From an uncultured bacterium (lineage in GTDB: Bacteria; Patescibacteriota; Patescibacteriia; Magasanikbacterales; GWA2-37-8): a stretch of 64,000 bases of DNA. The stretch lies in NCBI GenBank assembly GCA_937903605.1, contig CALCZC010000025.1, forward strand, positions 3,275 to 67,274. The letters run 5' to 3'. Made by a program: the position numbers and the translations under genes. Positions 10,107 through 60,291 of the stretch are shown in pieces. The notes under the pieces are model-generated. The model was not told the origin of the DNA, ran no database searches, and worked only from the letters and a program-made list of their open reading frames with translations. The stretch's first letter is position 1; the number at the start of each line of letters is the position of its first letter.

Positions 10107-10135
10107 TTGACAAAACTCTTAAATTAAGGTACTTT
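10107..10135 (+). promoter_or_regulatory. sigma70 promoter of cassette 1
   Basis: TTGACA-17 nt-TACTTT, then SD AAGGGAG before ATG 10186. Confidence 0.65.
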
Positions 10136-10185
10136 AGATAGTCGTTCGTTTACAATTTTATAGTCATTTTATAAGGGAGTTCGTC

Positions 10186-11718
10186 ATGAACACGTTTATC
10201 GCTCAGCAATCGTTGATCTGGATCCTCCTTTGTCTTTGCCTGATTCTTTTGGCGCTTCATTTCAAAAATGCGATCAAAAAGAAGAAAGAAAAACAAAGAC
10301 AGGATTTGGCTTTGGCAGAAGCCAAGAAAGAAGAAAAGCGTATGCTGGATTTACGAGAAGTATTACCCAAGCTTTTTACCGGCGCGCAACTAGATCATTT
10401 ACGGGCTAGACATTTCATTTTCAATGTCATGACGGCCGAAGAAAGAGACACAATGGCGCAGTGGTTTGAAACTCATGTGGAAATTTTCGGAAAATTTGAT
10501 TTTGAAACAGTCATTTCTGAGGAAAAAAGACCGCTGTTGAGCTTCGATGAATTTCAAGCTCTTTTTATGGTCGTTTTTAACGAAGGTTATTTTGATGCGA
10601 ACAAATTGCCTTTTGGTGGACAGTTGGAAATGTCTCAGAAGCTCAAATGGGCACAAATCCGTTTACGCTCTTCCATGCCGTCCAAAGAAGCAGAGGATGA
10701 AATGGACCGCTTAACCAAACAGGTGCGGTTTAGCCTGGAAGATCTCAACAGAGTGCGTAAATTGGCGGTCGCTGAGTTTGAAGCTCTGCAAAAAAAATCT
10801 CTGGAATTTGACCAGGTATTGGATAGATCGGAAAAAGCGGAAAAAGAGCGCTGGGAACTGTTTGTAGATACCAGGGAATTTTTGAAAGATTGGCCGGAAA
10901 TGAAAAAGGCCCTTTCCTTAGCTCGGTCTGAATACGAAGAACATCTCAAGGAATTGCTTGGTATCAAGAAAATGGGGATAGTTCAGATTCTCAAGGATAT
11001 TGCCGGTCACACCGAGGATCTGAACAAAATCAAAAAAGCCCTCGTTGACATGGAGAAGTGGCGTAAAGATAAGGAGAGTCTTCTGGAAAATAACCTGAGC
11101 AACCATCTGAACAAGATGTTTGAGCAGGCCAAAGACGATGCTGCTTTGCAACGTAAGCAGGCTCTGGATGAAATATCCAAAGTTGTGCATCAAGAGCTTG
11201 ATAAAATGGGTGAAGAAATTGCAGAACTACGTCAGAAGTTTGAAATGGTCCCTTCCGTGGTTGAAAAAAAGAAGGAAGAAGGACAATTCAACTGGTCTGC
11301 GACTATCTATGCTTTTTTTTCCATTTGCCTCATTGTTTTCATCTGGAGAGATCTTTCCAGAGAGAATGACCAATCGATGGTGGTTTTGGATAAGATCGCT
11401 CCGGTGGTGCAAGAAAATAATCTACTTTCCGATTCTGATCCGGAGGAATTTATTACAGTAGAGGAAAACGAGATACCGCCTTTTTATTCCGTTAACGAAG
11501 AAGAAGAAACTTCTTATGTTGAAGAAAAAGAATATTTGGAAAAAGAAACTAATTTTAATGAAGAGCCGAAATTGGTTCCAGTGCCGTTGATAGAAAAAAA
11601 GATAGCAAAAAAAGTTTTGGCTTTATGTCAGGACAAGAAATGCTGTCTTGATAGGTTCGGCAAGGACACTAAGACTTGGCCGCAGGCCATAGAGTGTATG
11701 CGATCAGTAAAAAAGTGA
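10186..11718 (+). CDS. Membrane-anchored coiled-coil protein (2 TM, acidic linker, Cys-containing C-terminus)
   Basis: TM at the N-terminus and near aa 370-388; long heptad region; C-terminal LCQDKKCC...EC; SD present. Confidence 0.8.
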   Translation: MNTFIAQQSLIWILLCLCLILLALHFKNAIKKKKEKQRQDLALAEAKKEEKRMLDLREVLPKLFTGAQLDHLRARHFIFNVMTAEERDTMAQWFETHVEIFGKFDFETVISEEKRPLLSFDEFQALFMVVFNEGYFDANKLPFGGQLEMSQKLKWAQIRLRSSMPSKEAEDEMDRLTKQVRFSLEDLNRVRKLAVAEFEALQKKSLEFDQVLDRSEKAEKERWELFVDTREFLKDWPEMKKALSLARSEYEEHLKELLGIKKMGIVQILKDIAGHTEDLNKIKKALVDMEKWRKDKESLLENNLSNHLNKMFEQAKDDAALQRKQALDEISKVVHQELDKMGEEIAELRQKFEMVPSVVEKKKEEGQFNWSATIYAFFSICLIVFIWRDLSRENDQSMVVLDKIAPVVQENNLLSDSDPEEFITVEENEIPPFYSVNEEEETSYVEEKEYLEKETNFNEEPKLVPVPLIEKKIAKKVLALCQDKKCCLDRFGKDTKTWPQAIECMRSVKK

Positions 11719-11733
11719 CTATATAAATTTTAC

Positions 11734-11762
11734 AAGGTCGGCCCATAAAGCCGACCTTTTTT
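11734..11762 (+). terminator. Intrinsic terminator
   Basis: AAGGTCGGC-CCATAAA-GCCGACCTT followed by a T run. Confidence 0.85.
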
Positions 11763-11880
11763 ATTTGAGTAACATTTGGATGATAAAAAGTATTATATAT
11801 GTATAATTTAAAAATATAGGATTAAATACTCAATATTTAACTAAATTTAGCCTTAAATTAGCCAAAAAGAGTAGGGGGTA

Positions 11881-11909
11881 TTGACAAAATTGTCTATTTG
11901 TGCTATAAT
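11881..11909 (+). promoter_or_regulatory. Perfect consensus sigma70 promoter
   Basis: TTGACA-17 nt-TATAAT with extended TG; near-duplicate at 19967. Confidence 0.85.
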
Positions 11910-12145
11910 ATGTCGTTACAATCAAAAAGGATTTTGATCCACTGTGGAAGAGGGTGATCAAAAGAACTATGAAAATAACTCCTTCCCGGGAGCGTTTTTT
12001 GTTCTTAAAATAAATTTTCTTTTTAACTGCACGGTTTAAAACATAAACCTTGTTAATAAGGAGAAAATTGTTCATTAAAATTAAAGATTTCGTTTATATA
12101 GGAAGTCCAGGATATTAACAACAGGAAAACACCAGGAGGTGTACG

Positions 12146-13129
12146 ATGAAGAAGATGATGCTTTTTGTCGCGATAGTTTTCGCGATGGTTACCGTGACTG
12201 CGCAGCAGAGCGTGTATCCCCTTAATCCCAGTTCCACAATCACGGTGCAGGAATGCATCGATCTGATGAACGCTGCCAAAACCGCCCAGACCAAAACCAC
12301 CGAAATGAAAAAGAAAGTGGAAGGGGTGGTCGCTGCTGTCAAAAAGGGTAACAAGACTCCGGAAGATGGGTCCAAAGAGATCTCCAAAGAGATCAAGGAG
12401 AACCCCGAAGTTCCTCTGGAAAGCAGAAAGGCGGCTAACGAAGTTGCCAGGAAAGTCCTTTATAAAAAGGATCTGACCGAAGCAATGGAAGCTTTCGAGA
12501 CCACTTTCAAGGCGGACCTCGCCAGATTGGAGGAGAAAATCTCCGGTCTTGAGGAAAGGATGGCAAAGCTTGAAGAAAGCGATGCTAAACAGAATGAACG
12601 CCTTGGCAATGTCGAGGAGGTGGTCGCAGATCATGAAAACCGGCTGGATAACCTGGAAGAGGGAATATTCTCCGGTTACTTCGGTGCAAAGTTTCTCACT
12701 TCTTCGGTGTTCGATACTGCCGGTGGTGGCGAACTGGGTATGACCGTGAAAATCGGCAAGCTCAATGGCCCGTTCAAAGCCGACTTCGGCGCAACCCTGT
12801 ATGGTTCGGAGATCAAAAATCTCATAGGAATCGAAGGCAGGGGCATAATCACCTGGATGAGCGACGATTTCAAATTCGTCAAGCTCGGCCTTGGTGGTAT
12901 GGGCGGTGGCATGTTTGATGTCAATAACGCCGGAAGAGTTTCCACTTCCTACGGCGGTGGGCAGTTCGAGATTTCGGCCGTTTACAAACGGTACGAGCTC
13001 TATGCCGATGTCAACCTCGGCGCAAGGGACATGCGCAAGATAAGCGGCCAGCACGAAACCAGTTTCTACTGGGGAGTGATAACTGGCGTCCGCATAAACT
13101 TCGGCGGTCCGTTCGAGACCGTCAAGTAA
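12146..13129 (+). CDS. Secreted coiled-coil protein with a C-terminal predicted outer-membrane-type beta-barrel
   Basis: SD AGGAGGT; Sec signal peptide; coiled coil (LARLEEKISGLEERMAKLEE); about 8 amphipathic Gly/aromatic strands ending FYWGVITGVRINF. Confidence 0.7.
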   Translation: MKKMMLFVAIVFAMVTVTAQQSVYPLNPSSTITVQECIDLMNAAKTAQTKTTEMKKKVEGVVAAVKKGNKTPEDGSKEISKEIKENPEVPLESRKAANEVARKVLYKKDLTEAMEAFETTFKADLARLEEKISGLEERMAKLEESDAKQNERLGNVEEVVADHENRLDNLEEGIFSGYFGAKFLTSSVFDTAGGGELGMTVKIGKLNGPFKADFGATLYGSEIKNLIGIEGRGIITWMSDDFKFVKLGLGGMGGGMFDVNNAGRVSTSYGGGQFEISAVYKRYELYADVNLGARDMRKISGQHETSFYWGVITGVRINFGGPFETVK

Positions 13130-13227
13130 AACGAATATCTTTAAAACGGGAGGGTGAGTTCTTCACCCTCCTATCCCAATCCTTGTCAATAACTTGTTTG
13201 TTGACAGAGTAATGGGAAACCATTAAC

Positions 13228-13243
13228 TGCTCTTTGAAAATTT
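13228..13243 (+). promoter_or_regulatory. boxA-like (Nus factor) element
   Basis: TGCTCTTTGAAAATTT matches 10/12 of E. coli rrn boxA TGCTCTTTAACA; lies in the 5' leader after two hairpins. Confidence 0.6.
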
Positions 13244-13322
13244 GCTGTAGAAAAAACCCTTTGAGAGGGTTTATATATAGAGGTTACAGGTAGTTTCATA
13301 ACAAACATCTTTGGAGGATGCC

Positions 13323-14174
13323 ATGAAGAACGTACTTTTTTTCTTTGCCGTCGTGTGTGCGATGGTTTTCACCGTTTCCTGCGCCAACTGCACTTACAAT
13401 GAGAAGCTCGGCGCGTGTATCGAAGACATGCCCGAAGAGACCGATGACGCCAAGACCGACATCGACGACGCCAAGACCGACGACGAAAAGTCGGACACCG
13501 ACACTGTCGAAGGTCCCAAACAGGGTGAAGAAGGCGGAAAATGCTTCGCCAACAAGTCCTGTATGGAAGGGCTGGAATGCATTAAGCTCAATGAAGACTA
13601 TATCTGCATCGTAGCAGAAGAAGTCGATGACGACCTCGCAAGCGACGACGAAGAGACCGACGACGAAACCAGCGATGATGACGCAGTCGATCCCGACCTT
13701 GGAAAAGAAGGTCATGGCTGTCTTCCGAACGGAACCTGCAACGAAGGTCTCGTATGTGACCAGGCTTCCGAGAACGAAACCGATGTCTGCGTAAAAGCGG
13801 TCGGCGTAGTCGGAGATAAGGACGGCTCGTGTAAGCCCGATCGGACTTGTAACACAACCTCACTGGTTTGTTACCGTGAAGACTTCGTCTGTCATAATAT
13901 GCCGACCGTCGGCACACGCACCGTTTGCTGGTCGCGTGAACTCAATACCTCACCGGTGCAGGATTCCTGCTCGAAAGAAGGGGGCATCGCTCCCGCGGTA
14001 TTTGAGTATGTCAGCGGGACAAAAACCCCGAACTGCGAAGGACTCGTGAATGTGGACCCGGAGTTCGAATGCGTGCGTATCAACGCAACGGTCGAAACCT
14101 TCCGTAATTCCACACCGGCCGAGCGAGATGACCTCGCCCTCACTTCGTCGTTCTACCTTCCGCCCATAAATTAA
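13323..14174 (+). CDS. Cys-rich/Asp-rich lipoprotein (paralogue A)
   Basis: SD TGGAGG; signal peptide ending TVS-C; three G.EG..C..N..C..GL.C modules separated by acidic linkers. Confidence 0.85.
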   Translation: MKNVLFFFAVVCAMVFTVSCANCTYNEKLGACIEDMPEETDDAKTDIDDAKTDDEKSDTDTVEGPKQGEEGGKCFANKSCMEGLECIKLNEDYICIVAEEVDDDLASDDEETDDETSDDDAVDPDLGKEGHGCLPNGTCNEGLVCDQASENETDVCVKAVGVVGDKDGSCKPDRTCNTTSLVCYREDFVCHNMPTVGTRTVCWSRELNTSPVQDSCSKEGGIAPAVFEYVSGTKTPNCEGLVNVDPEFECVRINATVETFRNSTPAERDDLALTSSFYLPPIN

Positions 14175-14220
14175 CGGCGGACCCCAAGTGCTTTTGGGGT
14201 GACTACAGCAACTTTTACTT

Positions 14221-14250
14221 GACAGCCGATGCACCGGCTGTCTTTTTTTT
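14221..14250 (+). terminator. Intrinsic terminator
   Basis: GACAGCCG-ATGCAC-CGGCTGTC followed by T8. Confidence 0.85.
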
Positions 14251-14282
14251 ATCAATTTTCCCCTCCTTTTGATAAGAGGAGG

Positions 14283-14302
14283 CCTGCCTGCCGGTAGGCA
14301 GG
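14283..14302. repeat. Short GC-rich palindrome (REP-like)
   Basis: CCTGCCTGCCGGTAGGCAGG, intergenic near-perfect palindrome. Confidence 0.55.
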
Positions 14303-14331
14303 ACTAGGGTGGAGTCAAGTGGAAAAAATAG

Positions 14332-14360
14332 TTGACAAATTATAAATTTTATGCTACATT
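14332..14360 (+). promoter_or_regulatory. sigma70 promoter
   Basis: TTGACA-17 nt-TACATT with extended TG. Confidence 0.75.
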
Positions 14361-14439
14361 TAGCTGTTAAAAGATTTTCCTTTTTCGGCGCTTTTAATGG
14401 GTTTTTTGTATTTATTTTGAAAGTGCAAAAAAGAGGGAA

Positions 14440-14455
14440 AGCTCTTTGAAAAATT
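14440..14455 (+). promoter_or_regulatory. boxA-like element
   Basis: AGCTCTTTGAAAAATT in the leader between promoter and SD. Confidence 0.6.
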
Positions 14456-14525
14456 AGCAACTTTAGATAGGGAGAACAGAATGAAAAACGGTTTTAACAA
14501 CAGCAACTGCACGGAGGTGCACGCA

Positions 14526-17500
14526 ATGAAGAACTACTTCGTTTTTTTCATCGCCGTAGCGATGATGCTCATGCTTGCTTGTGAAAGCAGCAAAGACGGT
14601 CGTGATGGTCGTGATGGTCGCGATGGTATCGCGGGCCAGGACGGCCAGGATGGTCAGGACGGGGAAGATGCTCCGGTTTCGCTTTCGCGCTCCGAAAAAG
14701 CGAGTGAAGAAGAAGCGCGTGAGAACTGTGGCGAGGACATCGTCAACGCCAATTGGATCTGTACCGGCGTGGACGAAAATGAAAATGGCTATCTCGACGA
14801 TTATGAATTCGCCGAATGCCATATTGAATGCGCGGGTGCGCCCGGTCACAGTGCATTGGTTGCAAAAACCGATACCACACAAACCGAGTGTCCCAACGGC
14901 GGATTTCATTTTCTTTCCGGTATTGACACCAACGACAATGGCGAGCTTGATGCCGAAGAAGTTTTGGTTGATGAGCTCGTTTGTAACGGCGTTGATGGTC
15001 AGGATGGTATCGGTGATGTAGTTCGTACCAGTACGGAACCCGCCGGCACCAACTGCCAAAACGGTGGTCAGAAAATCGAGCGTGGTCGCGATCTCAACCG
15101 CAACGGTCAGCTGGATGTGTCCGAGATTACCAGTACAAATTATGTATGCAATGGTATTGACGGTACGAACGGGCATGATGCGAGGACTCGCACCAGTATT
15201 ACCAATGATCCGACATTGTGTGCCAGCGGTTCCGGAGTTATTTTTGAATCCGGTACTGACAACAATGACAACGGAGTGCTCGATGATCCGGAGGTTTCCA
15301 CTACGGATGTTATCTGTGATGGTGCCAACGGTAAGACCACACGCATGATCGTGGCCACAGAACCCGCAGGAACAAACTGCGCAGTCGGCGGTTTTTCCGT
15401 CGTTTATGGCGTAGATGAAAATGACAATGGACTTCTCGATACTACCGAGCAGTCGCCCGCACAGTACATCTGTCATGGACAAGACGGTTACAGTGTCGTG
15501 ATGAGAGTCACGGCTGATATTGCTGTTTGTTCATGGAACGGATACAGGTTGCAGTTCGGTCAGGATCTTGATCGTAATGGTATCTTGGATACCGGCGAGG
15601 AAACATCCGACTTTTATATCTGCAACGGATCCGATGGTCTCATTTCCCGCATCAATATTTCCGACGAGCCCAATGGTGAAAACTGTGCGGCCAGCGGAAA
15701 AAGAATAGATACGGGGATGGACATCAATCGCAACGGCCTGCTTGACAGCACCGAGATTACCACGACCAACTATGTCTGCAACGGTGTGCAGGGTCCGCAG
15801 GGAGTTCGGGGATACAATTCGCTTTCGCGGATAACTCCGGATCTTGGCGGAACAGTCTGCACCTGGGGTGGATATTATTTGGAAGTCGGCACAGACATCA
15901 ATGAAGACTGGATCTTGGATCTGGATGAAGTTGGTCACAGTGCTTATGTCTGCAACGGTATAGATGGTAAGACCTGCAGTTCCATACTCAACGATGAACC
16001 CATCGGTACGAACTGTGCTTACGGCGGAAAAATCGTGTATTCCGGTTGTGACGATGATTACAACGGTGTGCTGGACCTCTACGAGGTCGTTCATACCGAC
16101 TACATCTGTAACGGCGCCACCGGTGCGATAGGTCCTGCCGGGTACAATGCCCTGACCAATATGCAAATAGCGGTCAGCGGTTGTCCCAATGGCGGATATG
16201 TTTTCACTGCCGGCACAGACGCCAATGATGATCAGATCCTTGATCTCACGGAAGTGACGGTCACGAATCTTATCTGTCATGGTGTCAATGGCCAGGATGG
16301 TTATACCTATCGTGTGCAGATGGTTGATGAACCCGTGAGTACAAATTGTGTTCAAGGTGGCAAGGCTATCAGTGGAGGTATAGACAGCAACCGTAATGGT
16401 GTGCTCGATCCTTCCGAAGCCGATGATCCGGTTTACATCTGTCATGGTGCAAACGGACTGCCCGGCGCCAATGGTCAAAACGGTCTAAGTATGGCTTTTG
16501 TCATCAGCGTGGCGAGCATTTCCGAATGCCCGGCCGGTGGTGAGAAGCTGGAGCTTGGATTGGATATTGATGCCAGTGGCGTGCTTGAGCTCGTTGAAGT
16601 TACTAGCACGGTTCTCATCTGCAATGGTCAGAACGGTCAGAACGGTAAAAATTCTTTGACCACTATGACCGTGGAGCCCATAGGTACAAACTGCGCCAAA
16701 GGCGGCCATCTCTTGTTGGTCGGTATTGACGACAATGAAAACGGTATTTTGGATTCCAGTGAAGCCGGGGTTCCGCAGTATGTCTGCCATGGTTTGGATG
16801 GCATCAATGGTGCCAACGGGACCAACGGCCACAATGCTTTGGCGATGGTTACCACATCCACTTTGGGATTCTGTCCCAATGGCGGATCCGAACTGCGGAC
16901 CGGAACTGATCTCAATGATGATGGGGTTTTGAATGCGGGCGAAGTTTCTTCGTTTGCGCTTATCTGTAACGGCCAGAACGGCGCCAATGGTGCCGACGGT
17001 TACAGCTCCAGAACTACGATGATCAGTGAGCCCGCAGGTGCCAATTGCCAGGCCGGAGGATTTTTTATTATCTCCGGTACTGATACCAACAACAACGGCG
17101 CGTTGGATGTTACGGAAATTGAATATTCCGGATACATCTGCAACGGCATAAATGGGAATCCCGGCAGTAATGCCGTAACCCGTGGCCGTCTCGCGCTCGT
17201 TTCTGAATGTCTTAATGGCGGAAGCATCGTGGAAACCGGTACGGATAGTAACAACAATGCTGTACTGGACGATGTGGAAGTCATGACGATAAGTTATCTC
17301 TGCAACGGTGATCCGGGAACAAATGGCCAGGATGGCATTTCCTATCGTGTTATCATCACCAATGAATCCGCTGGAATTAATTGTCAGGCCGGTGGAAAAA
17401 AATTGGAAGGTGGTTACGATACTAACAGGAATAATATCCTGGATCCAGGCGAAATCGTAATGACCGAGTATGTCTGCAACGGCATGGACGGTCAGGATGG

Positions 17501-18296
17501 TCAGGATGGTGTGAACGCACTGCTGCGTATGGAAGATGAACCCGCAGGGGTAAATTGCGAACGCGGTGGCAAAGCAATCCTTTCCGGTTACGATCTGGAT
17601 AGTGATAATTACCTGGATGACACCGAAGTGCTTGCACAGAGTTATCTCTGCAACGCCAAGATCGTTTACTCGGTTGGCGCAGAAAGCACCTATGGTACAT
17701 TCACGGCCTATACAGCCAGCACGGTTTCGTATTGCAAAATATATGGTACGACTCTTGAAGCCGTTGCTTACATTAGCGATGTGGGTAATGCGGCGGTAGT
17801 GGCTACGGATTGGGAAGCGGTGGAGTGTTTCAACACTTCCCATGTCCGGGTGAACATCATTTCTTGTTCCGGTAGCGGTTTTGCGCAGAGCAATGTCGGT
17901 GTGTGCACTTATGACGGATCCGTGTATGCGCGTGGCGGTTTGGGGCAGACTTGTAAGCCCAATCGTGCGTGTGATAGCGGTGTCTGCCGACTTCTGGACA
18001 CGACCTGCATTACCAAACCCTCTCCGGGAGCGGGCGAATACGCTTTTTATTGGGACGGCACTATGAACTCCGGCGGAACCACTTGCGAAAGCTATGGTGG
18101 TAACTACTACTCACCGGTGGTGGGTCAGTGGGATATTTCCGGAGTGCCCAACTGTAATGCCGATCTCGGTGATCCGGTTAGGGGACTCAAGTTCTACACC
18201 GGGTGCATCACGGATCAGAGTGATTTTGATACTCTTGATCCTGCCACTCGTCATTGCACCGGTCCGGCTTATGCCACGGTGCTGGCGCCCTGGTAA
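14526..18296 (+). CDS. Large repetitive lipoprotein: 18 Cys-bracketed DxNxNGxLD Ca-binding-type repeats with collagen-like linkers (paralogue B)
   Basis: SD CGGAGGT; lipobox MLA-C; repeats (EPxGxN)CxxGG...GxDxNxNGxLDxxE...xCNG; GxxGxx linkers; C-terminal domain shared with neighbouring genes. Confidence 0.9.
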   Translation: MKNYFVFFIAVAMMLMLACESSKDGRDGRDGRDGIAGQDGQDGQDGEDAPVSLSRSEKASEEEARENCGEDIVNANWICTGVDENENGYLDDYEFAECHIECAGAPGHSALVAKTDTTQTECPNGGFHFLSGIDTNDNGELDAEEVLVDELVCNGVDGQDGIGDVVRTSTEPAGTNCQNGGQKIERGRDLNRNGQLDVSEITSTNYVCNGIDGTNGHDARTRTSITNDPTLCASGSGVIFESGTDNNDNGVLDDPEVSTTDVICDGANGKTTRMIVATEPAGTNCAVGGFSVVYGVDENDNGLLDTTEQSPAQYICHGQDGYSVVMRVTADIAVCSWNGYRLQFGQDLDRNGILDTGEETSDFYICNGSDGLISRINISDEPNGENCAASGKRIDTGMDINRNGLLDSTEITTTNYVCNGVQGPQGVRGYNSLSRITPDLGGTVCTWGGYYLEVGTDINEDWILDLDEVGHSAYVCNGIDGKTCSSILNDEPIGTNCAYGGKIVYSGCDDDYNGVLDLYEVVHTDYICNGATGAIGPAGYNALTNMQIAVSGCPNGGYVFTAGTDANDDQILDLTEVTVTNLICHGVNGQDGYTYRVQMVDEPVSTNCVQGGKAISGGIDSNRNGVLDPSEADDPVYICHGANGLPGANGQNGLSMAFVISVASISECPAGGEKLELGLDIDASGVLELVEVTSTVLICNGQNGQNGKNSLTTMTVEPIGTNCAKGGHLLLVGIDDNENGILDSSEAGVPQYVCHGLDGINGANGTNGHNALAMVTTSTLGFCPNGGSELRTGTDLNDDGVLNAGEVSSFALICNGQNGANGADGYSSRTTMISEPAGANCQAGGFFIISGTDTNNNGALDVTEIEYSGYICNGINGNPGSNAVTRGRLALVSECLNGGSIVETGTDSNNNAVLDDVEVMTISYLCNGDPGTNGQDGISYRVIITNESAGINCQAGGKKLEGGYDTNRNNILDPGEIVMTEYVCNGMDGQDGQDGVNALLRMEDEPAGVNCERGGKAILSGYDLDSDNYLDDTEVLAQSYLCNAKIVYSVGAESTYGTFTAYTASTVSYCKIYGTTLEAVAYISDVGNAAVVATDWEAVECFNTSHVRVNIISCSGSGFAQSNVGVCTYDGSVYARGGLGQTCKPNRACDSGVCRLLDTTCITKPSPGAGEYAFYWDGTMNSGGTTCESYGGNYYSPVVGQWDISGVPNCNADLGDPVRGLKFYTGCITDQSDFDTLDPATRHCTGPAYATVLAPW

Positions 18297-18314
18297 GTTG
18301 CTTTAGTTCATTTC

Positions 18315-18342
18315 AGGCGGTCCTTCTAGGACCGCCTTTTTT
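18315..18342 (+). terminator. Intrinsic terminator
   Basis: AGGCGGTCC-TTCTA-GGACCGCCT followed by a T run. Confidence 0.9.
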
Positions 18343-18353
18343 ATTATAGGTAT

Positions 18354-18409
18354 TTGACATACATTGATGAGTGATATATAATGGTTTGTTAAAAGTTCTT
18401 TGATATTTT
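18354..18409 (+). promoter_or_regulatory. Consensus sigma70 promoter followed by a boxA-like element
   Basis: TTGACA(18354)-17 nt-TATAAT(18377); AGTTCTTTGATATTTT at 18394. Confidence 0.8.
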
Positions 18410-18447
18410 AGACAGATAATAAACCATAATTCATGATGGAGGTTGTC

Positions 18448-19854
18448 ATGAAAAGTGTAGTTTTGACCGCGGTTGCGATCTTTTTTGTTTCCATGTTTTT
18501 CATTTCCGGATGTGCCAACTGTAATTATTCCGAACAGTTGGGAGCGTGTCTTGAAGAGACACCGGATAATGGTGTTGACAAAGAAAATAATGACAATTTT
18601 GTTTCAGACAAAGAAATGACTGATGAAGAAGCCAACAATTTGCCAAAAATCGGTGAAGAAGGCGGAGGGTGTTATCCAAACGATACTTGTGACTCCGGTT
18701 TGAAGTGTATCAAGATCAATGAGAAGATGATGTGTATCAAATTGTCCGAAGAAAAAGATGCAGAGGTTGAAGTTCAGGATTTTGCTGTTGAAAACGAATT
18801 ACCTGATAATGATACTGCATCAAACACTGAGAATGATTCTTACTATCAAGATGACACTGAATCATCTGATTTTGAAAATGAGATACCGGATGTTGATCAT
18901 GTTATCAAATGTGATAAACCGGTTGTAGCCGTAGCCTTCAAAGGACCGCAAGGTTATTGTGGTGGCCAATTTCCTTTTGGCCGTTGGCATGACAATGCGG
19001 TTGTTAAAACCGGACAAGAAGTGACCATAGTAGTTGCCAACCCGTTGGGGACTATTCCGACAGGATACAATCTTGCCAATGAGCTCAAGATAATGGTAAA
19101 AATTTCCCAAGATACGGATTATCTCAACAGTAACTTATCTAATGGATTTTTTATTGGAAACAACGCGCTGACCATGGGTCTTACACCGGGTGGTGGTAAC
19201 AAAACGGAAATGAAATTGATTTTTGCAAAAAAATCATCTTCCATTATGGAGCCACAGAAAGTGATTGTCTCCATAGTTCAAACCACCGGTTATGACGGAT
19301 ATGTTGCCCTTGAGAAAGATAAGTTCGGCGGAGTCTATTGTAGCCCCCATGGAACCTGTCCCGTTTTTAGCGAAGTGATTTTGTGGGTAGTCGACTCTTC
19401 CGATTCCATTCAATGGGGTGAACTGAATCAGAGATGTTTGCCGGATAAAAGATGCTCGCGAAATTATTCCGACCAGTGTGTATCCGGTGACGATCAAGAA
19501 TACTTTTGTACCCAATATGGAAATACTTGTGTTTCCAAACCAAAATTGGAAGTGGATCAGGAATATCGCTATTGGGATGCTACCATAGATTGGTATACAG
19601 GTTCGAACTCCGTTTATAACGGTAAAACCACCTGTGAAAGCAAAAGTTCGAGCAATCGTTTTTGTTATCCACCCGATCCATGGACTTGGAATAACGATAG
19701 TGTTTTACCTGCCTGCCAATGCAGTGACAACTCCTTGTTTAAGCCGGCTGGTGCAATGGGATGCGTTGTTGATAAAGGAAGTCGGTGGGTAGATTGTAAA
19801 AGCGATATTTTTTGGAAATACAATTTTTACTCACCCTCCTATATCTGTCAGTAG
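18448..19854 (+). CDS. Cys-rich/Asp-rich lipoprotein (paralogue C)
   Basis: SD TGGAGGT; lipobox ISG-C; N-terminal CANCNYSEQLGAC shared with paralogue A; GEEGGGCYPNDTCDSGLKC module. Confidence 0.85.
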   Translation: MKSVVLTAVAIFFVSMFFISGCANCNYSEQLGACLEETPDNGVDKENNDNFVSDKEMTDEEANNLPKIGEEGGGCYPNDTCDSGLKCIKINEKMMCIKLSEEKDAEVEVQDFAVENELPDNDTASNTENDSYYQDDTESSDFENEIPDVDHVIKCDKPVVAVAFKGPQGYCGGQFPFGRWHDNAVVKTGQEVTIVVANPLGTIPTGYNLANELKIMVKISQDTDYLNSNLSNGFFIGNNALTMGLTPGGGNKTEMKLIFAKKSSSIMEPQKVIVSIVQTTGYDGYVALEKDKFGGVYCSPHGTCPVFSEVILWVVDSSDSIQWGELNQRCLPDKRCSRNYSDQCVSGDDQEYFCTQYGNTCVSKPKLEVDQEYRYWDATIDWYTGSNSVYNGKTTCESKSSSNRFCYPPDPWTWNNDSVLPACQCSDNSLFKPAGAMGCVVDKGSRWVDCKSDIFWKYNFYSPSYICQ

Positions 19855-19874
19855 TTGATAATATAGTTCTTTTT

Positions 19875-19902
19875 AGGTGGCTCTTCTAGAGCCACCTTTT
19901 TT
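19875..19902 (+). terminator. Intrinsic terminator
   Basis: AGGTGGCTC-TTCTA-GAGCCACCT followed by a T run. Confidence 0.9.
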
Positions 19903-19966
19903 ATTTAGTAAAAAATGGCTTAAATAAGCAAAATTTATTTTGGCTAAGATTAGCTAAGTTTACCCC

Positions 19967-19995
19967 TTGACAAAATCGTCAAAATGTGCTATAAT
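19967..19995 (+). promoter_or_regulatory. Perfect consensus sigma70 promoter
   Basis: TTGACA-17 nt-TATAAT with extended TG; paralogous to the promoter at 11881. Confidence 0.85.
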
Positions 19996-20201
19996 ATCAC
20001 GTTACAATCAAAAAGCGTTGGAGAGAGCGCGGAAGTAATAAAAGGCCAAATTCCGTATCTCTCTTTATCAAAAGAGAGTTTTGTTTTTCTAGCCCATTAT
20101 CCCATCAACTAGATTGATTGGATAAAGGAGAGAAAAAATAAAAATCAGGTTCCTTACAATATAGAGTTAGAGTCCAAAAAACCAATAAGTGGAGGAAAAC
20201 C

Positions 20202-21362
20202 ATGAAAAAGCTCATCACCACGGTTGTGGTCGCCTTCTTTTTCGTCGCCTGTGGCGGCAGCAATGTCAACAATGTCAATGACGAATTCGTCGGCAACGAC
20301 GAAAGCATCAATGATGAAATCACCGACAACGAGACTCCCGATGAGATCGTCAGCGATGACGAGATTAACTGGGATGAAGTCGGCCATGAAGGGGAGCCAT
20401 GCTTCCCGAACAATACTTGTCACGAAGGGCTTAAATGCCGTGACGGCAAGTGTGTGGACGACGGTGGCATGTCCGATACCGGTAAACTCAATCATGAGTG
20501 TTACCCGGACGGTTCATGCAGATCAGACGACATGATCTGTGAGGAAGGAATTTGCGTCGAGCGTAAAGCCGATGCGGATGAAACTCTCACGGATAATGAA
20601 GTCGCGGATGATGTTGTGACTGATGACGAAACTTCGGATGAAATCATTTCCGATGAGGAAGTGGTGGATGAAGAAGTGATGACTGACAACGACATCGTTG
20701 ACAATCCCGTGGTCGACAATGACACGGCCGAAGATCCTCTGACCGGGATTGAAGCGGGACATCCCTGCTACCCCAACAACACCTGCGATAGTATCAAAGG
20801 TCTTGTATGTCAGAACGGTCTCTGTCAGTATCCTGGCACCACGCCGGATGTTGATACTGCGACTCCGGACGAGGACGAAGTCCTTGTCGATGATGAGACA
20901 GTCACTGATTCCGACGTTGCTTCTGATGAAGAAGTGACAGACGATGATGTGCTTCTCACAGAAGAAGAACCGGTGGTTGATAATGATACCACTGAAGTTC
21001 CGGATCAGGACAATCTGCCGTCCGACATCGGAAACAAGGGGCAGAGTTGTTACCCCAACCACACCTGTAATGGTGTGCTGGTCTGTATCGTTGGCACTGA
21101 AATATGTGCTGATGAACCGATTGCTGTCCTCGGACAGTATGAGGGCAGATGTTGGGACTACAAGGATCCTCTTACAGGAAAAACCACCTGTGAAAAAGAG
21201 GGCTGGTACTGGTCTCCTGCTATCTGGGCCGAGACTTCGGACCAATTCCCGCTTTGTATCGGTAGCAGCACCAGACGTCCGTATCTTGCGGAATGTCAGT
21301 TGCAAACCAACAGCGGAGAGCCTCGTAGTTCGGTGTGGTATAAATATCCGACCACGCCGTAA
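20202..21362 (+). CDS. Cys-rich/Asp-rich lipoprotein (paralogue D)
   Basis: SD TGGAGG; lipobox FVA-C; four G..G..C(Y/F)P(N/D)..C...L.C modules separated by D/E/T/V-rich linkers. Confidence 0.85.
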   Translation: MKKLITTVVVAFFFVACGGSNVNNVNDEFVGNDESINDEITDNETPDEIVSDDEINWDEVGHEGEPCFPNNTCHEGLKCRDGKCVDDGGMSDTGKLNHECYPDGSCRSDDMICEEGICVERKADADETLTDNEVADDVVTDDETSDEIISDEEVVDEEVMTDNDIVDNPVVDNDTAEDPLTGIEAGHPCYPNNTCDSIKGLVCQNGLCQYPGTTPDVDTATPDEDEVLVDDETVTDSDVASDEEVTDDDVLLTEEEPVVDNDTTEVPDQDNLPSDIGNKGQSCYPNHTCNGVLVCIVGTEICADEPIAVLGQYEGRCWDYKDPLTGKTTCEKEGWYWSPAIWAETSDQFPLCIGSSTRRPYLAECQLQTNSGEPRSSVWYKYPTTP

Positions 21363-21479
21363 ATTCTAACTCTAGGATTTAACATAATGGACCGGGCACC
21401 TGACTTTACGTCAAGGCCCCGGTCCAATCTTTATATGAGATTGTCACATTCTCTCCTGATGACGATCTCAGATAATATC

Positions 21480-21512
21480 AAAAAACCTTTCACTTTTCGT
21501 GAGGGGTTTTTT
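21480..21512 (+). terminator. Intrinsic terminator
   Basis: AAAAACCTTTCAC-TTTTC-GTGAGGGGTTTTT hairpin (with G-U pairs) plus T run. Confidence 0.7.
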
Positions 21513-42084: not shown

Positions 42085-42100
42085 AACTGTAAAGTAAATT

Positions 42101-42130
42101 AAAAAAGCTCTCGCATTGGATAGCGAGAGC
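42101..42130 (-). terminator. Intrinsic terminator for the small minus-strand ORF
   Basis: GCTCTCGC-8 nt-GCGAGAGC with A6 on the left (U tract on the minus strand). Confidence 0.75.
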
Positions 42131-42138
42131 GTTATTGT

Positions 42139-42339
42139 CTAAACAGTGGAATTAACAGCTTTGACATCAAACGCGTGTATGGGCTTTTCAAAGCCTTCGA
42201 GTTTCAACATCAAAACATCGGTGTTGTGAGGACCTCCTCCACTAGGGGAAGTGAAGAAGTAATCTTTCACAACAACTTCTTTTCCTTCATAAAGAACTTT
42301 TTTGCCTTTTTCAATGAAGCTCGGTACGTGTCCGCTCAT
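42139..42339 (-). CDS. Small hypothetical protein (66 aa), SD-led stand-alone gene
   Basis: GGAGG-ATCCC-ATG at 42339; own promoter TTGACA(42402)-17 nt-TTAAAT and own terminator. Confidence 0.7.
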   Translation of the reverse strand: MSGHVPSFIEKGKKVLYEGKEVVVKDYFFTSPSGGGPHNTDVLMLKLEGFEKPIHAFDVKAVNSTV

Positions 42340-42448
42340 GGGATCCTCCGTCAAAAATGAATATAATGCTTTTATTTAAGCACCAAAAATCGTTTTTGTC
42401 AATCTTTTAATCTTTTTAATCTTTAAATCTTTGTAATCTTTAAATAAT

Positions 42449-59551: not shown

Positions 59552-59604
59552 TTGACAAAATAGGGAACTTTTGCTTAAATCAAGGTAGAAGTTCTTTTTA
59601 TTTT
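59552..59604 (+). promoter_or_regulatory. sigma70 promoter plus weak boxA-like element for the ankyrin gene
   Basis: TTGACA-17 nt-TTAAAT with extended TG; AGTTCTTTTTA at 59590; SD AAGGAGGT. Confidence 0.65.
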
Positions 59605-59626
59605 ACTTCTTTAGAAGGAGGTTATT

Positions 59627-60256
59627 ATGGCTTTAACAAAGCATGTAGTCGATTTTGTTCTGAAACATCTGGAACAAAGAAATTATTTGGTAAAATTTCT
59701 GTCTCCGCTTATCAAGGACTCAGTCATTTTGCCGGAAGAAGAAAACGATGACGGGACTAGCTTCTTTGCAGCTTTTGTATCAATCGGAAATCTCGTTTTT
59801 TTGACAGAAGCCTATTCCAAGCTCAATCCTGTTAAGCGCAAAGACGTGCTTAACAAAGTGGACAGAACCGGAGCGTCAGTGCTCGACAGGGCCTATCTCT
59901 TGTCGGTTGATGAAGCCGATCGGGAGAAAATCATCCAGTTTCTGCAAAGCCAGGGTGCGGAAATTATCGGGTACAAAGCTCTGAACCATTTTATCGAAAG
60001 AGGAAATCTCGCAATAGTGGAAACACTCTGTCGACATTGTACGGACTTTTCTGCTTGTAATAAGTCGGGCAAAACCCTTTTGATGTTGGCGGCAAAAACC
60101 GGACAGATGGAAATCGTTCGTTATTTGGTGGAAGAGTTAGCTGTTAATCCGAGAGAAAAGAACAAAGAAGGAGAGACAGCTGTTGATTTTGCTCAAACTA
60201 TGGAACACAAGGAAGTATACGAATATCTGAAGAAGAAAATTTCAGATACCCTCTGA
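59627..60256 (+). CDS. Ankyrin repeat protein
   Basis: GKTLLMLAAKTGQMEIVRYLVE, NKEGETAVDFA, GNLAIVETL. Confidence 0.88.
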   Translation: MALTKHVVDFVLKHLEQRNYLVKFLSPLIKDSVILPEEENDDGTSFFAAFVSIGNLVFLTEAYSKLNPVKRKDVLNKVDRTGASVLDRAYLLSVDEADREKIIQFLQSQGAEIIGYKALNHFIERGNLAIVETLCRHCTDFSACNKSGKTLLMLAAKTGQMEIVRYLVEELAVNPREKNKEGETAVDFAQTMEHKEVYEYLKKKISDTL

Positions 60257-60263
60257 AAGGGTC

Positions 60264-60291
60264 AAGGATCGCCATCAAGCGGTCCTTTTTT
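60264..60291 (+). terminator. Intrinsic terminator
   Basis: AAGGATCGC-CATCAA-GCGGTCCTT followed by a T run. Confidence 0.75.

Follow-up and report, generated by a model that had tools for sequence, protein, structure and literature searches.

A Genome-Wide Class of Shine-Dalgarno-Led Genes in an Uncultured Patescibacterium, Possibly Directed at Its Host

Introduction

Six consecutive genes of an ultra-small, uncultured and host-dependent patescibacterium, an array at positions 10,107 to 21,512 of the 64-kb stretch of DNA analyzed here (the window; G000:C25:3275-67274), each carry a Shine-Dalgarno (SD) sequence, a signal that the core genes of the same genome rarely have. Which ribosome is meant to read them? 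The original prediction, made from the letters of the window, was that the six are effector cassettes read by the RNA polymerase and ribosomes of a host. Comparison across the genome and its relatives gives good support to the view that the array belongs to a real class of SD-led genes, long established and under selection, which is aimed in part at a diderm host. We favor tentatively, at just under an even chance, the view that about 80 host-directed genes make up this class across the genome, with the array as its largest cluster. Two reports (PMC10633639, PMC12102498) leave open by what means Patescibacteria exploit their hosts and which cargo passes through their type IV secretion system, which is essential but has no relaxase.

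Results

SD sequences set lineage-specific genes apart from core genes

The genome under study (G000) comprises 1.13 Mb in 32 contigs. Our genome-wide counts cover the 836 genes found by our own gene caller on the 7 main contigs, the 25 other contigs being left out. Foreign contigs are present in the bin: a mitochondrial one (C10, 36 kb), which gives the only small-subunit rRNA match in the bin, the bacterium's own 16S gene not being assembled, and a phage-like one (C16, 116 kb), in which SD sequences precede 87 of 132 genes. Relatives have genomes of 0.5-2.2 Mb without BamA or Rho, in line with Patescibacteria. For comparison, we used two genomes of the same genus (G002 and G003) and a complete genome from another genus of the same family (G024). 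Genes with a tblastn match in G024 were called shared and those without one unique, or lineage-specific; 35 weak matches were kept apart.

SD sequences precede 81 of 300 unique genes but only 9 of 501 shared genes (and 3 of the weak matches). The same contrast was seen in G024, where 70 of 353 unique and 5 of 488 shared genes are SD-led. The prediction that core genes lack SD sequences was thus borne out, and the refutation it named, common SD use in the core, failed. SD-led unique genes also more often have a strict promoter (39/74, compared to 26 of the 289 shared genes with room for one) and a terminator (52/65 versus 122/297), and their GC content at third codon positions (GC3) is higher (0.40 versus 0.31). 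In G000, SD-led genes occur as 44 singles, 11 pairs, 3 triples and one run of six, which is the array.

A sequence motif also distinguishes the class. When a matrix trained on leaders from G002, G003 and G024 was applied to G000, scores of at least 9 were reached by 23 of 74 SD-led and 15 of 303 shared leaders (1.7 and 12.3, respectively, in shuffles; P 4e-9). The enrichment was confined to the sense strand, and 17 of 35 sites found at a weaker threshold lie 15-27 nt before the start codon. We take the motif to be boxA-like from a comparison of its consensus with boxA sequences; NusB is present in the lineage. The rRNA leaders of 13 relatives scored at most 8.0, with just ACAAT-type remnants. 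Rho was found in none of 61 family genomes. In E. coli suhB, boxA adjoining the SD represses translation, according to part of one report (PMC5725501); this would give the motif a possible function in a Rho-less cell.

Promoter type does not distinguish the class. TTGACA-17-TAnnnT precedes the rRNA loci of 13 of 14 relatives, and AT-rich leaders are found even before genes with a coding GC of 0.60. Since promoters of the same type serve rRNA loci and core genes, we rejected a foreign origin for them. The SD, the boxA-like motif and codon usage separate the two classes; promoter and terminator types are not foreign. In G024, for example, the array uses AAG (96%) and TTC (88%) far more than ribosomal-protein-like genes do (29% and 18%). 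Cassette codon usage varies between genera. A bias toward the symbiont's own high-expression codons was rejected, as ribosomal-protein-like genes, tuf and fusA follow core usage.

Six self-contained cassettes form the array

All six open reading frames (ORFs; 10186, 12146, 13323, 14526, 18448 and 20202) start where predicted, with GGAG(G) 4-6 nt upstream of each ATG, and five have the expected TTGACA-17-TAnnnT promoter, with -35 elements starting at 10107, 11881, 14332, 18354 and 19967. The boxA-like element, predicted for most of the genes, was found as a 13-mer before all six (10144, 12070, 13229, 14441, 18395 and 20149). A GC hairpin plus U tract ends every gene except 12146, which has a hairpin of -18.3 kcal/mol without a U tract. 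The claim that the array is GC-richer than its flanks held for four genes (GC 0.51-0.54) but only mildly for 10186 and 18448, at just 0.41; GC3 is 0.44 for 10186 and 0.38 for 18448, compared to 0.31 for shared genes.

All six cassettes lie on the forward strand. Cassette 1 (10107..11762) has its promoter at 10107-10135, a GGGAG SD, a coding sequence (CDS) at 10186-11718 and a terminator at 11735-11762; the product has an N-terminal hydrophobic stretch and is a membrane-anchored coiled coil of no family. Cassette 2 (11881..13172; promoter 11881-11909, AGGAGGTG SD, CDS 12146-13129, hairpin 13148-13172) encodes a protein with a signal peptide, a long coiled coil and a predicted 8-stranded outer-membrane-type barrel. 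Cassette 3 (13201..14250), in which TTGACA at 13201 is paired with a weak, non-consensus -10, encodes an acidic Cys-rich lipoprotein (GGAGG SD, CDS 13323-14174, terminator 14221-14250). Cassette 4 (14332..18342; promoter 14332-14360, GGAGGTG SD, CDS 14526-18296, terminator 18315-18342) specifies a lipoprotein with 17 DUF7151 repeats, a domain found in 4 of 100 family genomes; an in-frame ATG at 14481 also has GGGAG. Cassette 5 (18354..19902; promoter 18354-18382, GGAGGT SD, CDS 18448-19854, terminator 19875-19902) encodes a Cys-rich lipoprotein paralogous to 13323, and cassette 6 (19930..21512; -35/-10 at 19967-19995, GGAGG SD, CDS 20202-21362, terminator 21479-21512) another acidic Cys-rich lipoprotein. 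The paralogues 13323, 18448 and 20202 are 30-44% identical to each other in their best segments.

The promoter block of cassette 6 (~19930-20010) recurs in many family genomes. Both there and at 11830-11930, TAGCC/GGCTA repeats lie 5′ of the -35 and CGTTACAATCAAAAAG follows the -10; similar upstream repeats also precede mraZ and rRNA genes.

Directly 5′ of the array lies its left anchor, an SD-less gene on the forward strand (4841..10009) that encodes a giant protein of 1722 amino acids with no Pfam family. The protein is fast-evolving, has hydrophobic Gly/Ala stretches and is always encoded directly 5′ of the array; it may belong to an apparatus for delivery or contact.

The same plan was predicted elsewhere in the window, and both genes named do have an SD, TTGACA-17-TTAAAT and a terminator. 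One cassette, on the reverse strand (42095..42402), has a GGAGG SD and a 66-aa ORF (42339-42139). The other, on the forward strand (59552..60291), has a AAGGAGGT SD, an ankyrin-repeat CDS (59627-60256) and a terminator at 60265-60291. The predicted cargo of lipoproteins, a β-barrel and an ankyrin protein is present: four lipoproteins, the coiled-coil and predicted barrel protein 12146, and the ankyrin protein at 59627.

The array is old and its cargo turns over at a fixed site

Directly 3′ of homologues of the giant gene, G002 and G003 carry arrays of seven and six ORFs. Their proteins are 22-62% identical to those of G000 or unmatched, and the signals are kept: 12 of the 13 ORFs are SD-led, the 13th being the second piece of a split gene (the DUF7151 gene of G002 is in two pieces), and the boxA-like motif and a strict promoter each precede 11 of 12. 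Genes flanking these arrays had the motif in 0 of 44 cases and an SD call in 2 of 44. At the same site in G024, next to a weak match to the giant gene (E 4e-5), are seven SD-led genes with GC3 of 0.74-0.90 (0.38-0.62 for cassettes in G000) and AT-rich leaders. Their products are Cys-rich lipoproteins, together with two proteins that have a signal peptide and a barrel-like end. The synteny extends to the close relatives L099 and L100. Since the array occupies the same site in three relatives with its proteins diverged or replaced and its signals kept, it is neither a chimera of assembly, a refutation that the original prediction had named, nor a fresh transfer.

L099 has one extra SD-led lipoprotein cassette (L099:4085-5146) between orthologues of 21642 and 23034, indicating gain or loss of a single cassette.

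Cassette orthologues have core-like dS (0.39-1.33) and dN/dS of 0.13-0.20. Orthologues of 10186, 62% identical in G002 and 22% in G003, keep the SD (dN/dS 0.20 versus G002), and alleles of 20202 that are 60-94% identical (dN/dS 0.13-0.16) differ in SD sequence but always have one. Homologues of 12146 are mosaics, with two leader types and two barrel types whose halves are shuffled between species: the barrel is 89% identical between G002 and G003 but 21-26% identical to that of G000, while the N-terminal halves of G000 and G002 are 56% identical. Thus, the class is old and under purifying selection, at a fixed chromosomal site while the cargo turns over.

Cassette GC3 was unchanged in both lineages compared, for example 0.56 and 0.54 at dS 0.94, while core GC3 is 0.20-0.34. 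A three-taxon count of GC3 changes (49 GC-to-AT versus 35 AT-to-GC) rejected a 74% share (P 0.002), with a core control that was itself biased (211 versus 407).

No close donor or viral relative was found

Near-identical genes in a donor genome, another refutation named at the outset, were searched for and not found for 12146, 20202 or 14526. For 14526, for which 8000 candidates were scored, the best 120 of 196 matches included no donor above 43% identity, only two close alleles (95% and 77%) exceeding this value; among the matches examined, the nearest named relatives were in Myxococcota. Five homologues each, 60-95% identical, were recovered for 20202 and 12146, and a search of 1.84 billion representatives gave four clear relatives of 12146; such word-based searches miss distant relatives. 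ESM Atlas matches for both proteins were all below 0.9 and serve as leads only. Viral contigs contained no relatives of 12146 or 20202, and among phages 14526 matched only tail fibres, at 29%. As predicted, no integrase was found among the genes of the window.

G024 probably does contain foreign DNA. A stretch of ~55 kb with 60-66% GC (L039:8500 to L042:5600, partly repeated in L033) encodes recombinases as well as a coupling protein and a type I restriction system; either it is an element that integrated from some GC-rich organism, or it was mis-assembled.

Some cargo lacks its partners in the symbiont

In an AF2 model of 12146, built from six sequences, a long coiled coil is followed by eight strands at residues 175-319 (pLDDT 46-72 there). 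Residues 172-320 match NspA (Z 13.1, rmsd 2.9, 137 aligned) and also OprF, OmpW and OmpA (Z 12-13; Foldseek OmpW E 2e-5), at 7-17% identity to known 8-stranded barrels. On this model, 12146 is predicted to be an eight-stranded antiparallel outer-membrane barrel. It resembles NspA, OmpW and the N-terminal domain of OmpA/OprF in predicted fold and signal peptide. A terminal Phe is present in most homologues: the P0008-P0010, G002 and G003 copies end in Phe, while those of P0006, P0007 and G000 run past it, the last with a short tail. It differs from them in its long N-terminal coiled coil and in belonging to a family without BamA. A search for bamA, proposed in the original prediction, gave 0 of 100 family genomes (control 7/14). 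The coiled-coil protein at L058:6276 in G024, whose barrel is inferred from its sequence only, has no sequence similarity to 12146.

Sigma-54 activators were detected in 7 of 100 family genomes, and sigma-54 in only one, on a 1.5-kb contig of another, fragmented genome. We kept 5 of 8 activator matches, in five genomes (L121, L122, L124, L125 and L126). All five are SD-led, start at the AAA domain and have no input domain; four are full-length with lid and helix-turn-helix, four lie beside genes of core-like composition, and two adjoin rplA. We left out the G024 activator (two copies), as it is part of the GC-rich mobile element, and the G084 activator, as its contig is just 1.3 kb long and it lacks an SD. 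A barrel without BamA and activators without sigma-54 support a host destination for the cargo.

A Pfam scan of 63 of the ~90 SD-led proteins of G000 assigned 11 to a family, including NDK, ThyX, H+-PPase, a CDP-alcohol phosphatidyltransferase, a lone receiver domain, an M16 peptidase, a helicase, ankyrin, an IS200 transposase and an integrase-repeat protein, with weaker matches to TPR and nucleotidyltransferase. For G024 (59 of 70 SD-led proteins), matches include PyrE, PyrF, Mu Gam and Stig1.

Relatives of the symbiont retain the anti-SD

The proposed check that 16S rRNA retains CCUCC was run on relatives. All 20 order-level 16S ends that were read, among them that of same-genus G002, have an intact anti-SD, as do 42 of 43 at the phylum level (7 unreadable), in agreement with part of a report that limits anti-SD loss to some Parcubacteria (PMC9297842). 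The 16S gene of G135 lacks CCTCC; in the 360 of ~500 kb of that genome examined, SD sequences precede 9 of 116 unique and 4 of 205 shared genes. The SD-led unique genes have GC3 of 0.50 (0.39 for shared genes), and three strong ones, including thymidine kinase, lie on the 16S contig. In G147, a GC-rich genome of the candidate phyla radiation (CPR; 400 of 810 kb examined), core genes themselves use SD sequences (27/138).

In 20 of 20 16S precursors (L002-L024), the sequence after the anti-SD is predicted to fold back on CCUCC as a hairpin. Masking of the anti-SD by an unprocessed tail is nonetheless unsupported, as all 5 genomes examined have YbeY. Several phylum-level 16S genes (L160-L163, L165, L168 and L173) have apparent insertions near the 3′ end, observed directly in L160 and L161, and one such insertion carries an ORF start. 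TGA read-through in rpoB was seen in 0 of 101 sampled genomes.

Some core genes do carry SD sequences. An extended SD precedes rpsU in G000 (-14.0 kcal/mol, rank 11 of 836) and at 7 of 15 relatives' loci (8 not parsed). Ten G000 genes pair more strongly with the anti-SD than rpsU does, including two core pilin-type genes. The extended form (GAGGTGA/GGGGGTGA) was seen at rpsU, the major pilin, a second pilin-like gene and HU in G000 (C25:340686-340925 on the reverse strand, C26:30302 and C28:8205) and G024 (L044:3429 and L055:16214). Further core exceptions are a TAAGGAG SD at nusG in both genomes (G000:C7:131870; G024 L046:13254) and an SD at nusB in G024 (L034:3746). Sections of two reports describe SD-blind ribosomes in Bacteroidia, with SD-less core genes, an intact anti-SD and an extended SD at rpsU (PMC9976891, PMC7797042). 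The G000 lineage shares these features (the anti-SD as seen in relatives), but rpsU is neither the strongest nor the only SD gene in G000. The extended SD at rpsU, pilins and HU makes a Bacteroidia-like autoregulation by bS21 in Patescibacteria, with a small regulon, possible.

Of the other genes whose presence the original prediction had asked about, lgt is core (59 of 61 genomes), and lspA and nusB are present in the lineage. VirB4-like and TraD/VirD4-like ATPases were found in 5 of 5 genomes, the TraD matches being weak (E ~1e-7). According to parts of two reports, the secretion system is essential in Saccharibacteria and mostly without a relaxase (PMC10633639, PMC12102498), and relaxases are rare across the phylum (PMC12102498).

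Discussion

A model that could accommodate these data is that the cassettes are host-directed genes transcribed by the symbiont and translated by host ribosomes, which we regard as slightly more doubtful than assured. From native promoters of the sigma-70 type, the symbiont RNA polymerase would produce transcripts that are short and monocistronic. The boxA-like site, in most cases 15-30 nt ahead of the start codon, may recruit symbiont NusB/S10, which would keep the message untranslated at home. Where the cells are attached, the message would come into contact with a diderm host's translation machinery, possibly via the relaxase-less type IV secretion system; in a variant, host ribosomes would enter a shared cytoplasm. 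Host Sec, Lgt/Lol and BAM would go on to insert lipoproteins and barrel into the envelope of the host, and small enzymes and regulators (PyrE/F, thymidine kinase, NDK, ThyX, H+-PPase and input-less sigma-54 activators) would retune host metabolism much as phage auxiliary genes do.

Several observations weigh against this model. The anti-SD is intact in relatives, and the SDs at rpsU, pilins, HU and nusG indicate that the symbiont's own ribosome probably reads some of them. Core lgt, with lspA and nusB, means that lipoproteins can be made at home. Bacterium-to-bacterium delivery of mRNA has no precedent in the literature that we searched, and the barrel and activators could reach the host as proteins. 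The AF2 model of 12146 has a mean pLDDT of 64 and derives from six sequences. SD use by the core genes of G147 indicates that the two-class split is not phylum-wide, and SD type differs significantly between the classes in G024 (P 3e-5) but not in G000 (P 1). The GC-rich element of G024 indicates that plain transfer from GC-rich donors occurs, and a non-stationary likelihood fit of GC3 (95% interval 0.15-0.62) is compatible with decay to core GC3. The original proposal of host reading is partly supported: cargo with missing partners speaks for it, and what the symbiont retains speaks against it. Its weaker half is reading by host RNA polymerase, as the native, AT-rich promoters point to transcription in the symbiont.

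Many of these observations fit expression in the symbiont's own cell, which we consider a serious if rather doubtful possibility. The array would then belong to an old accessory set of effector and surface genes whose SD the symbiont ribosome reads, perhaps just during attachment or, as in Flavobacterium, under a shortage of bS21. With its promoter, boxA and terminator, each gene would be autonomous and strongly expressed; lipoproteins would coat the symbiont, and the barrel and regulators would be handed over as proteins. The retained anti-SD, the core SDs, the presence of lgt, lspA and nusB, and the native promoters all agree with this. So do passages reporting that F. johnsoniae ribosomes without bS21 translate strong-SD reporters better (PMC9976891) and proposing the relaxase-less secretion system as a protein exporter (PMC10633639, PMC12102498). 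Left unexplained are codon usage that differs from ribosomal-protein, tuf and fusA genes and varies between genera, and SD-led cassettes in G135, which lacks the anti-SD; a signal-peptide barrel made at home would also have no BamA.

Alternatively, moron-like genes may have been acquired singly from hosts or neighbors by natural competence, the donor's SD being inherited rather than selected and the genes still ameliorating. Part of one report describes many transferred genes in Patescibacteria (PMC12455944), the cargo resembles diderm families, 14526 has its nearest named relatives in Myxococcota, the mobile element of G024 has similar GC3, and the GC3 fit allows decay. We nevertheless find acquisition unlikely, given the lack of a donor for 12146, 20202 or, above 43% identity in the best 120 of 196 matches, 14526; the native rather than donor-like leaders and promoters; the use of one site across genera; and an SD that outlasts ~1 substitution per synonymous site and changes in its own sequence. 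Mosaic alleles and foreign contigs in the bin might instead suggest that the cassettes travel on a phage or another vehicle, which is expressed in the host while the chromosome serves for storage, or that the region is mis-assembled. Synteny in G002, G003, G024 and L099/L100 largely refutes mis-assembly, and with no integrase in the window, no viral relatives of 12146 or 20202 and just 29% tail-fibre matches for 14526, we judge either version very improbable.

The host-directed model has partial counterparts. The T-DNA genes of Agrobacterium are carried by one organism in the expression grammar of another, whose physiology their products retune. The cassettes likewise have an SD, a boxA-like motif and codon usage that core genes do not use, in cells with type IV secretion ATPases. 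Unlike in T-DNA, the promoters look native to the carrier, the genes are scattered, and the host, to which delivery is proposed, is presumably a bacterium. Phage morons, in part of one account, are single genes of deviant GC with their own promoter and terminator between conserved genes (PMC3594210). The array is similar in having its own promoters (5/6) and terminators (5/6), with a weak GC contrast for 10186 and 18448. It differs in lying on a cellular chromosome, with core-gene flanks syntenic in relatives and no viral relatives found for 12146 or 20202, and in its scale: ~80 GC-richer cassettes, one site used across genera, and a translation signal that core genes lack. Host-takeover modules and auxiliary metabolic genes of phages such as SPO1 comprise clusters of small lineage-specific genes with strong signals. 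The likeness is in nucleotide-metabolism enzymes and regulators seen as aimed at the host; the cassettes differ in belonging to a cell that has ribosomes of its own and in a cargo that includes envelope lipoproteins and a barrel.

We found no description of the two-class layout in the open-access literature searched, with subscription papers and bioRxiv supplements outside this scope, nor in the relevant passages of PMC10582724, PMC12641178, PMC12455944, PMC13293708 and PMC13059738 or the abstract of PMC10746230. Whichever ribosome reads it, the SD-led class provides a countable list of candidate host-directed genes per genome. It is possible, though somewhat doubtful, that a second set of genes, addressed to the host, is maintained by many Patescibacteria and translated by the ribosomes of a bacterial host; these symbionts would deliver mRNA (or DNA) across the contact site and remodel host envelope and metabolism in phage-like fashion while remaining cells, and SD, codon usage and protein families would then identify the host of an uncultured symbiont from its genome alone. 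If host ribosomes do read the class, message transfer between bacteria would be a way of life, and the cassettes would offer a route to host prediction.

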